Assembly: GCF_001677475.2 (NCBI RefSeq)
Contig: NZ_CP015229.1
Length of the DNA: 64,000 nucleotides
From: Escherichia coli
GTDB lineage: Bacteria; Pseudomonadota; Gammaproteobacteria; Enterobacterales; Enterobacteriaceae
Reading direction: 5' to 3' (one strand)
Numbering within the stretch: position 1 is the stretch's first letter; each line of letters starts with the position of its first letter. Position numbers: made by a program. Of this stretch, positions 48,001 through 51,000 are shown piece after piece.

Positions 48001-51000
48001 GGTGGTTCTGCGCCAGCAAATTAAGCGCATGATCCACGACCTGGAAGCGACCGGCATTCGCAAAATTCTGCAAATTGAACTGGCGGTACTGCCAGACAGC
48101 GATCGCCGTGGCATGACCGCTTCCGGCATGATTGTGATTAATCCGCCGTGGAAGCTGGAACAGCAGATGAATAACGTGCTGCCGTGGCTGCACAGCAAAC
48201 TGGTTCCGGCTGGTACCGGGCACGCCACCGTAAGCTGGATCGTGCCGGAGTAATTGCAGCCATTGCTGGCACCTATTACGTCTCGCGCTACAATCGCGGT
48301 AATCAACGATAAGGACACTCTGTCATGACTAAACACTATGATTACATCGCCATCGGCGGCGGCAGCGGCGGTATCGCCTCCATCAACCGCGCGGCTATGT
48401 ACGGCCAGAAATGTGCGCTGATTGAAGCCAAAGAACTGGGCGGCACCTGCGTGAACGTCGGCTGCGTACCGAAGAAAGTGATGTGGCACGCGGCGCAAAT
48501 CCGTGAAGCGATCCACATGTACGGTCCGGATTATGGTTTCGATACCACTATCAATAAATTCAACTGGGAAACGTTGATCGCCAGCCGTACCGCCTATATC
48601 GACCGTATTCATACTTCCTATGAAAACGTGCTCGGTAAAAATAACGTTGATGTAATCAAAGGCTTTGCCCGCTTCGTTGATGCCAAAACGCTGGAAGTTA
48701 ACGGTGAAACCATCACGGCCGATCATATTCTGATCGCCACCGGCGGTCGTCCGAGCCACCCGGATATTCCAGGCGTGGAATACGGTATTGATTCTGATGG
48801 CTTCTTCGCCCTTCCTGCTTTGCCAGAGCGCGTAGCAGTTGTTGGCGCGGGTTACATCGCCGTTGAACTGGCGGGCGTGATTAACGGCCTCGGCGCGAAA
48901 ACGCATCTGTTTGTGCGTAAACATGCGCCGCTGCGCAGCTTCGACCCGATGATCTCTGAAACGCTGGTCGAAGTGATGAACGCCGAAGGCCCACAGTTAC
49001 ATACCAACGCCATCCCGAAAGCGGTAGTGAAAAATGCCGATGGCAGCCTGACGCTGGAGCTGGAAGATGGTCGCAGTGAAACGGTGGATTGCCTGATTTG
49101 GGCGATTGGTCGCGAGCCTGCCAATGACAACATCAACCTGGAAGCCGCTGGCGTTAAAACTAACGAAAAAGGCTATATCGTCGTCGATAAATATCAAAAT
49201 ACCAACGTTGAAGGTATCTACGCGGTGGGCGATAACACGGGGGCAGTGGAACTGACACCGGTAGCAGTTGCAGCGGGTCGCCGTCTCTCTGAACGCCTGT
49301 TTAATAACAAGCCGGATGAGCATCTGGATTACAGCAACATTCCGACCGTGGTCTTCAGCCATCCGCCGATTGGGACTGTTGGTTTAACGGAACCGCAGGC
49401 GCGCGAGCAGTACGGCGACGATCAGGTGAAAGTGTATAAATCCTCTTTCACCGCGATGTATACCGCAGTCACCACTCACCGCCAGCCGTGCCGCATGAAA
49501 CTGGTATGCGTTGGACCGGAAGAGAAGATTGTCGGAATTCACGGCATTGGTTTTGGTATGGATGAAATGTTGCAGGGCTTCGCGGTGGCGCTGAAGATGG
49601 GGGCGACCAAAAAAGACTTCGACAATACCGTCGCCATTCACCCGACGGCGGCAGAAGAGTTCGTGACCATGCGTTAAATGTTAAAGGGCTAAGAGTAGTG
49701 TGCTCTTAGCCCTTAATTACGTTTCCGCTATCAGTTCAGAAGCTGAAGCAGAAAGCGGATCAGTTCCAGCAGCGCAATTAACGCCCCAAGAACGATGATT
49801 GCTTTATCAATCACCCGTTTTCTCCATGCGATGGAGTGAGAATGCATCCGCTTACTCATCCACTGCCTGTCACGGCGCATGTCTCATTGTTAGATAAGAA
49901 CTCTCTCACTCCGGCCAGAGCATCAGTTAACGGCACCACCCGTACTTCTGACCAGGACTTTGAAAGCGTTTATGCGCATTACCAGAGTGAAAATGCCTCA
50001 GAGCTAACTGGATAATCATACAGTACATGCAGGTTATAAAACCAGCACGTCCTTGCAATAGTTTCAGTATGGTATTAGCATTGATGCGTTAGATGATGGC
50101 TATCTCACTCCAGCCAGAGCCACCAACTCTGGGCTGAAGAGTAAAAAAACCGACGCAAAGTCGGTTTTTTTACGTCCGGATTCGGACAAAGCTTGGTACG
50201 GCAGCGACCCGATGAAAGTATATAAATCCTCTTTCACCAACATGTATAGCAAACTGTCCCTTCTCCAGCTGAAGAAATCGCTAATTCTTGCAATGTTAGC
50301 CACTGGCTAATAGTATTGAACTGTTAGATAAGAGCTCTCTCACTCCAGCCAGAGCCACCAACTCTGGGCTGGAAAGTAAAAAACCGACGCAAAGTCGGTT
50401 TTTTTACGTCCTGATTCAGACCTCCTTTCAAATGAATAGCCAACTCAAAATTCACACCTATTACCTTCCTCTGCACATACACATTCGTTAAGTCATATAT
50501 GTTTTTGACTTATCCGCTTCGCAGAGAGACACTACCTGCAGCAATCAGGAGCGCAATATGTCATTTCTGTTACCCATCCAACTGTTCAAAATTCTTGCCG
50601 ATGAAACCCGTCTGGGCATCGTTTTACTGCTCAGCGAGCTGGGTGAGTTATGCGTCTGCGATCTCTGTACCGCCCTCGACCAGTCGCAGCCCAAGATATC
50701 CCGCCATCTGGCATTGCTGCGTGAAAGCGGGCTATTGCTGGACCGCAAGCAAGGTAAGTGGGTTCATTACCGCCTATCGCCGCATATTCCAGCATGGGCG
50801 GCGAAAATTATTGAGCAGGCCTGGCGATGTGAACAGGAAAAGGTTCAGGCGATTGTCCGCAACCTGGCCCGACAAAACTGTTCCGTAGACAGTAAGAACA
50901 TTTGCAGTTAAAAAATTAGCTAAACACATATGGATTTTCGCATGTGTTTTATCCGGGAGGCATTATGTTACTGGCAGGCGCTATCTTTGTCCTGACCATT

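Follow-up and report, generated by a model that had tools for sequence, protein, structure and literature searches.

The interval between gor and arsR in the Escherichia coli DNA analysed here (a stretch of 64,000 nucleotides (nt) of contig NZ_CP015229.1, assembly GCF_001677475.2; hereafter the window) is, judging from its sequence, the chromosomal dinQ/agrAB type I toxin-antitoxin locus and the orthologue of the K-12 system. Between its two antitoxin small RNA (sRNA) genes, agrA and agrB, lies a short piece resembling the adjacent gene gor. It is highly probable that this is a dinQ/agrAB locus in which the gor-like piece is the functionless scar of one old tandem duplication. The locus itself is already known, the K-12 system being that of Weel-Sneve et al. 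(2013; PMC3567139) and Kristiansen et al. (2016; PMC5066626). The gor fragment is mentioned neither in these two papers nor in the T1TAdb paper, and a full-text search did not retrieve it, which is no proof that it is unpublished.

The identity of the locus is given by its location, its gene order and its products. The order gor-dinQ-agrA-agrB-arsR is that annotated in K-12 MG1655, with dinQ on the - strand and agrA and agrB on the + strand, and 961 nt around the locus are 95.5% identical to K-12. The best identity for the same 961 nt among E. coli genomes was 98.1%, and all matching records annotate gor (or gorA), dinQ and arsR. The dinQ coding sequence (49731-49814, - strand) comprises the final 27 codons of a 49-amino-acid (aa) open reading frame (ORF) at 49731-49880. 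It starts from a GTG (49812-49814; CAC on the + strand), differs from the K-12 coding sequence by one synonymous substitution and is annotated at the corresponding position in K-12 and in further strains. Its product, VIDKAIIVLGALIALLELIRFLLQLLN, a 27-aa single-transmembrane toxin, matched NCBIfam NF041472 (toxin_DinQ) with 54 bits against a cut-off of 30. On the + strand, agrA (50089-50173) and agrB (50324-50407) both covered the full Rfam model RF02891 AgrB (positions 1-84) with 92.7 and 107 bits, respectively, where the gathering score is 40 bits. The two units are 86-95% identical, terminator hairpin included, and both RNAs fold as a stem-loop followed by the intrinsic terminator with z-scores of about -5.5 (-5.6 and -5.35).

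The first 34 nt of the agr units are shared with the dinQ 5' leader at 49888-49921 (- strand; the AgrB target or "agrAB repeat"), at 27/34 positions (79%) in agrA and 32/34 (94%) in agrB. Because these repeats are in direct orientation at the DNA level and dinQ is encoded on the other strand, the agr RNAs are antisense to the dinQ mRNA. There is thus a divergent sRNA, antisense to the dinQ leader over the ~31-34 nt at its 5' end; for K-12 an agrB/dinQ duplex of 34 bp was described (Kristiansen et al. 2016). Over the first 33 repeat positions agrB has two mismatches to the dinQ target and agrA six, and the predicted duplexes amount to -59.6 and -46.8 kcal/mol, respectively. The window resembles K-12 in this respect, with agrB pairing almost perfectly, and hence predicted as the cognate antitoxin, and with agrA mismatched. 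All sequence-level defining features of the dinQ/agrAB system were found, including its position in the gor-arsR intergenic region. A preliminary description of the window had proposed a 27-aa DinQ ORF on the minus strand, a LexA box upstream of it (considered below), two ~85-bp units ending in the same terminator and ~35 bp of antisense sharing with the dinQ 5' region, and on each of these points it was correct. The dinQ leader repeat alone reached only 22.7 bits against RF02891, below the threshold. Weak Rfam matches to Spy779816 and SL1, as well as reverse-strand AgrB matches, reflect nothing but the palindromic terminator and were discarded.

The same description had pointed to a gor-like segment at 50195-50260 with ~80% identity, and pairwise alignment upheld it: 50196-50248 is identical to gor 49410-49462 at 44 of 53 positions (83%), without gaps, on the same strand and 786 nt downstream of its source. 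When the agrA-agrB spacer was compared with the whole window by blastn, gor was the only significant match (E=2e-10; next best E=3.7). The similarity extends further than had been seen at first, since the K-12, E69 and Escherichia whittamii alleles continue it to about 49486 (..CGCCAGC). The E. whittamii fragment matches window positions 49411-49486 over 76 nt (81.6%, E=1e-14). Based on the repeat search, blastn and alignments across alleles and species, the scar occupies 50196-50270 (+ strand) and is a decayed copy of gor 49410-49486, the copied gor segment being 49408-49486 (+ strand). The gor bases GTACGGC, CCTCTTTCACC and ATGTATA were kept in the window allele and lost in K-12, and GCGAT and TATACCG.AGT were kept in K-12 and lost in the window; such complementary retention is expected from independent decay of one ancestral copy. 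The shortness of the match (53-76 nt) and its AT-rich intergenic setting might suggest a chance similarity or a low-complexity artefact, but the probability of this is negligible. The blastn result in the window, the E. whittamii match and the allele alignment refute it, the source is the adjacent gene on the same strand, and the match recurs in K-12, E. whittamii and E. albertii.

The homology between the two agr units, flanks included, ends at the same base, 50187 after agrA and 50421 after agrB, and the scar starts 8 nt on, at 50196; a tandem duplication would be expected to have its novel joint at this site. The intervening segment (50174-50195, + strand) consists of the flank in common with that after agrB (to 50187) and an 8-nt junction filler, AAAGCTTG. 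The left junction is common to E. coli (K-12, E69 and SCPM), E. whittamii and E. albertii, and reads as the agr flank ..GATTCGGAC (GGAC), 7-8 nt, and then (A/G)GTACGGCG. In E. albertii there is one agr copy with the scar behind it, and the internal structure of this scar differs from that in E. coli. Three collinear blocks in it match the gor of that species (3271-3289, 3428-3447 and 3517-3539), with the TAA stop in the last of them, and a fourth block (3563-3574) corresponds to the gor terminator hairpin's right arm; when chained, they scored 12.6 standard deviations above shuffles. Thus, a significant same-strand similarity at the end of the unit homology and an orthologous junction in relatives, collinear with gor, were both found. 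Since the E. albertii scar keeps the stop codon and the terminator arm, the original copy probably ran through the end of gor and beyond. Since its blocks are spread over ~300 nt of gor, this long copy would later have been shortened by different deletions in the two lineages. The presence of the same junction in E. albertii and E. whittamii indicates that the duplication predates E. coli.

These observations would be accounted for by one tandem duplication of ~780 bp, reaching from about 49408 inside gor across the 3' end of that gene, dinQ and agr as far as about 50187 past the agr terminator, before the split of E. coli, E. whittamii and E. albertii. The second copy would then have lost the rest of gor', the second dinQ (dinQ2) and the dinQ promoter by deletion, so that in E. 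coli the second agr promoter is joined to a 75-nt rest of gor'. We infer the presence of a second dinQ in the unit from its end points. In K-12 the sRNAs were already described as "presumably tandemly duplicated" (Weel-Sneve et al. 2013). The preliminary suggestion that the locus arose by partial duplication of gor holds in so far as the fragment appears to record a tandem duplication with its left end inside gor, which gave the second agr. The locus itself does not come from gor, because dinQ and agr showed no similarity to gor by blastn in the window and homologous modules exist away from gor.

Several points weigh against this history. No remnant of dinQ2 was found in 50251-50290 by blastn and gap-tolerant alignment, nor downstream of the E. 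albertii scar, and no genome with a second dinQ was found. The duplication does not account for the 8-nt filler AAAGCTTG. Between the two scar haplotypes of E. coli the divergence is 32% and greatly exceeds that of their flanks, which simple neutral decay within the species does not explain, and the comparison outside E. coli comprised one genome per species. Two apparent remnants of dinQ2 were rejected: short blocks returned by the gap-tolerant search between the scar and agrB were noise, and a repeat between 49728-49748 and 50254-50274 (D5, 71%), which could have been a dinQ 3' remnant, is better explained as the continuation of gor at about 49466-49486, as the alignment of K-12 and E. whittamii shows. 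The lack of any dinQ2 remnant, this candidate included, would suit an alternative in which the agr unit alone was duplicated and the gor piece came separately, by template switching or as a break-repair patch. We consider this improbable, as the gor piece begins 8 nt past the exact end of the agr homology, just where a tandem joint is expected, and as the collinear blocks, stop codon and terminator arm in E. albertii point to a long copy that underwent different deletions in two species.

Another alternative takes the layout with one agr, as in E. coli O103:H2 12009, to be ancestral and the agrA/agrB duplication to be a recent event inside E. coli. Several hundred E. coli genomes have one agr, and the related plasmid and Hafnia modules (see below) are likewise single-agr. 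This has only a slight probability, however, because E. albertii and E. whittamii share the scar and its junction, which makes the event older than E. coli, and because the O103 agr combines an agrA-type promoter with an agrB-type downstream flank, as would result from unequal crossing-over. The same combination without a scar was seen in other single-agr strains, e.g., ATCC 11775 and WP4-S18. As the scar is older than the species, the single agr is best read as a collapse by unequal crossing-over rather than as the original state.

Of 5,426 complete E. coli genomes, 3,841 (71%) carried the scar and 1585 (29%) lacked it. Scars of the window type (at least 90% identity) occurred in ~810 genomes and those of the K-12 type (80-90%) in ~3031. 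Between the window and K-12, 24 of 75 scar positions differ, whereas the agrA and agrB promoters on either side do so at 0/45 and 1/53, respectively. The K-12-type scar (L001 2670-2740) is closer to that of E. whittamii than to the window type. The divergent haplotypes could possibly reflect a polymorphism of long standing or import from a different lineage of Escherichia.

Under the duplication reading, the scar would have no function of its own. It lies directly upstream of the agrB -35 element, is kept by most E. coli genomes and contains an ORF of 31-32 aa (50212-50310 in the window, 32 aa) which is open, with the same TAA end, in both the window and K-12 alleles. The fragment might therefore encode a small protein, engage in RNA cross-talk with the gor mRNA or serve as an upstream element of the agrB promoter, but there is very little chance that any of these applies. 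The ORF had no family match in the profile search, and its ATG has no preceding Shine-Dalgarno sequence. Its middle part is wholly different between the alleles (FTNMYSKLSL vs. LRYIPKCSLR), and E. whittamii and strain SCPM have a different frame and end. The scar RNA showed no stable fold (z=+0.9), and being sense to gor it could not pair with the gor mRNA. Moreover, the substitutions between the haplotypes are numerous, and the scar is lacking in the single-agr strains and in the fusion strains described next.

The three direct repeats formed by the dinQ leader, agrA and agrB make the locus recombination-prone. Besides the collapse to one agr and insertions of insertion sequences, a dinQ::agr fusion was found, in which the dinQ leader repeat is joined straight to the 3' part of agr (E. 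coli STIN_95, L003 1790-1890; Nissle 1917). Both promoters, that of dinQ and that of agr, are deleted in the fusion along with the LexA boxes, agrA and the scar, and these strains also lack arsRB; the DinQ ORF is intact in these strains and without a promoter. The junction was found with at least 99% identity in 846 complete E. coli genomes and with 95-99% identity in 165 more, ~19% in total. About one fifth of E. coli genomes, Nissle 1917 included, thus lost both promoters through recombination between the target repeat and an antitoxin gene.

Two further arrangements were observed outside these groups. Escherichia sp. E1V33 (minus strand, 10400-9700) has one agr, no scar and no ars genes, and its flank GGACAA is followed by unrelated AT-rich DNA and a gene for an slp-like lipoprotein; this layout is another independent deletion at the same boundary. 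In E. albertii a HigB-family type II toxin gene (4631-4933; Pfam PF05015, 117 bits) is situated ~0.5 kb beyond the scar, where E. coli has agrB and arsR, so the right side of the locus has evidently been replaced in that species.

The dinQ target also varies among strains in a patch of 9 nt immediately 5' of TCTCACTCC; in the window the patch lies at 49895-49903 (target), 50095-50103 (agrA) and 50331-50339 (agrB). Target alleles were counted as genomes at least 99% identical to a 55-nt query among ~4,450 genomes with an intact target. Allele T1 (AAGAACTCT), that of K-12 and the window, was found in 1,676 genomes, T2 (AATGGCATT) in 1,916 plus 313 at 95-99% (e.g., O157), and T3 (GACGACTAT), which includes the type strain, in 419. 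The cognate copy was surveyed in 14 sampled two-copy genomes, the population counts referring to the target allele only. In each sampled genome one agr copy carried the patch matching the target, and which copy this was differed by lineage. The better match was agrB in the window, KE55, K-12, 504239, 300709 and E5 (6-7 mismatches in agrA vs. 1-2 in agrB, the KE55 agrA excluded), and agrA in KFu014, PD23, 2013C-4225, O158:H23, E69, 118UI, 2017C-4173W12 and, more weakly, O157 (2-3 mismatches in agrA vs. 5-6 in agrB). In the sampled T2 and T3 genomes, the near-perfect partner was the promoter-proximal agrA, with agrB mismatched. The chances seem about even that, following duplication of the module and loss of the second toxin, the three repeats kept exchanging this specificity patch, so that the cognate antitoxin would not be fixed. 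Gene conversion among the direct repeats is proposed as the cause of the switching.

With regard to the control region, the window contains a CTG-N10-CAG LexA box, CTGGATAATCATACAG, at 50008-50023. The bare pattern is unspecific, with 31 occurrences in the window, but the 20-mer at 50006-50025 (TACTGTATGATTATCCAGTT on the - strand), which has both the CTG and the CAG cores, agrees with the LexA consensus TACTGTATATATATACAGTA at 15 of 20 positions and is the only one in the 64 kb to reach 15. This predicted operator overlaps the inferred dinQ -10 element TATGAT. In K-12 the LexA operators overlap the dinQ promoter, and a second, weak operator (heterology index, HI 13.82) adjoins the first (Weel-Sneve et al. 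2013); its counterpart here may be the candidate site TGCTGGTTTTATAACCTGCA at 50028-50047 (- strand, 12/20 matches), the assignment to these exact bases being ours. The putative agrA promoter (50053-50081, + strand) has a -35 TTGCAA (50053-50058), a 17-nt spacer and a -10 TAGCAT (50076-50081). The homologous agrB promoter (50288-50316, + strand) has a -35 TTGCAA (50288-50293), a 17-nt spacer and a -10 TAGTAT (50311-50316). Both were read directly from the bases; a consensus scan for promoters and terminators missed the agr promoters and terminators and made a single promoter call (49987-50016, + strand) that was at chance level; the scan was therefore not relied on. Some E. coli annotations place the + strand "hypothetical proteins" WP_001297979.1 and WP_000968019.1 across the dinQ leader and promoter and across agrA plus the scar (L021 544-717, L031 658-831 and L025 795-1010; window equivalents ~49836-50015, + strand, and the agrA/scar region). 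These calls are probably spurious, as known RNA genes occupy those stretches.

In K-12, LexA represses dinQ, and DNA damage leads to a primary transcript of ~330 nt, which becomes translatable only once its first 44 nt are removed and yields a 27-aa inner-membrane peptide. Constitutive AgrB pairs over ~34 nt with the leader and prevents formation of the active mRNA and its translation, whereas AgrA, with more mismatches, neither bound nor repressed in vitro (Weel-Sneve et al. 2013; Kristiansen et al. 2016). The SOS induction, +44 processing, membrane toxicity and AgrB-dependent repression were shown by experiment for K-12 only (Weel-Sneve et al. 2013; Kristiansen et al. 2016). By orthology, operators overlapping the dinQ promoter would let LexA repress the gene in the present strain. 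Upon DNA damage, the primary mRNA would be processed at +44 to give the 27-aa inner-membrane toxin, and AgrB, expressed constitutively from the divergent promoter, would pair by its 5' ~34 nt with the leader and block production and translation of the active mRNA. AgrA would be a paralogue that pairs poorly in this allele.

To the left of the locus, the intact gor gene (48325-49677, + strand) encodes a 450-aa glutathione-disulfide reductase (NCBIfam NF004776, 793 bits), annotated as gor or gorA in matching E. coli records. Just 3' of its stop is a hairpin (49684-49714), a terminator-like site in the scan, which would serve as the terminator of gor on the + strand and of dinQ on the other strand; the dinQ terminator was placed a few nt past the gor stop by Weel-Sneve et al. 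(2013). On the right, arsR occupies 50558-50911 (+ strand; ORF and matching records). A 7-kb stretch upstream had a best identity of 98.9% among the 5,426 complete E. coli genomes.

The K-12 locus resembles that of the window in its gor and arsR neighbours, gene order, DinQ peptide, LexA operator, both sRNAs and the terminators, and differs in the scar, that of the window being a different, deeply diverged haplotype. Away from gor, toxin genes of the dinQ/dqlB type were found in Hafnia paralvei (3957-4459), on IncX1 plasmids and on an IncK2/Z plasmid, 3148 plasmid records matching the query. Hafnia and, by BLAST, one IncX1 plasmid also showed a matching single agr-like sRNA and a leader repeat; dqlB of the IncK plasmid lies ~0.9 kb from a hok/gef gene. 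The modules of IncX1 (dinQ), IncK/IncL (dqlB) and H. paralvei share with the window a small hydrophobic toxin, a divergent agr-like sRNA, a leader repeat of ~33 nt and the same style of terminator. Unlike the window, they have a single agr, no gor fragment and another genomic context, which shows that the basic module is a toxin plus one sRNA, mobile and independent of gor.

There is a likeness to other type I systems of E. coli, a comparison also made by Weel-Sneve et al. (2013). In both tisB/istR-1 and zorO/orzO-zorP/orzP, a divergently encoded antitoxin pairs with the 5' untranslated region of the toxin mRNA, which needs 5' processing; tisB is likewise controlled by LexA, and zor/orz consists of tandem paralogous modules. 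Compared by description, zor/orz keeps both toxins, whereas in dinQ/agrAB the second copy of the module is reduced to its sRNA. Similarly, pseudogene fragments at the joints of tandem duplications are truncated same-strand copies of a flanking gene at the novel joint that decay without constraint. The present scar differs from the usual ones in being old (three Escherichia species) and in lying inside a regulatory RNA locus.

Sequences of E. coli dinQ/agr with 93-95% identity to the window were also met in an Acinetobacter haemolyticus contig (424 nt), in a contig of a Lachnospiraceae metagenome-assembled genome (1061 nt) and in an uncultured bin (1.7x), most likely through contamination or mis-binning. 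The contig of the uncultured bin (L008), with a gor of 79.6% identity, was rejected as a distant outgroup; given its 1.7x coverage and its K-12-like intergenic region, it was treated as an error-rich E. coli contig.

The scar is a modest evolutionary footnote to a known system. It would fix the extent and the age of the agrA/agrB duplication, from inside gor to just past agr and before the split of E. coli and E. albertii, and it implies that AgrA and AgrB may have started as the antitoxins of two full modules, one of which later became toxin-less. Of greater practical importance is the survey of alleles. If complementarity decides function, as the in vitro data for K-12 suggest, AgrA would be the working antitoxin in ~60% of the E. 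coli genomes with an intact target, and the K-12 view of AgrA as a degenerate, non-functional copy would hold for only ~40% of them. What was concluded from K-12 on the sRNA that controls DinQ may not extend to most E. coli lineages.

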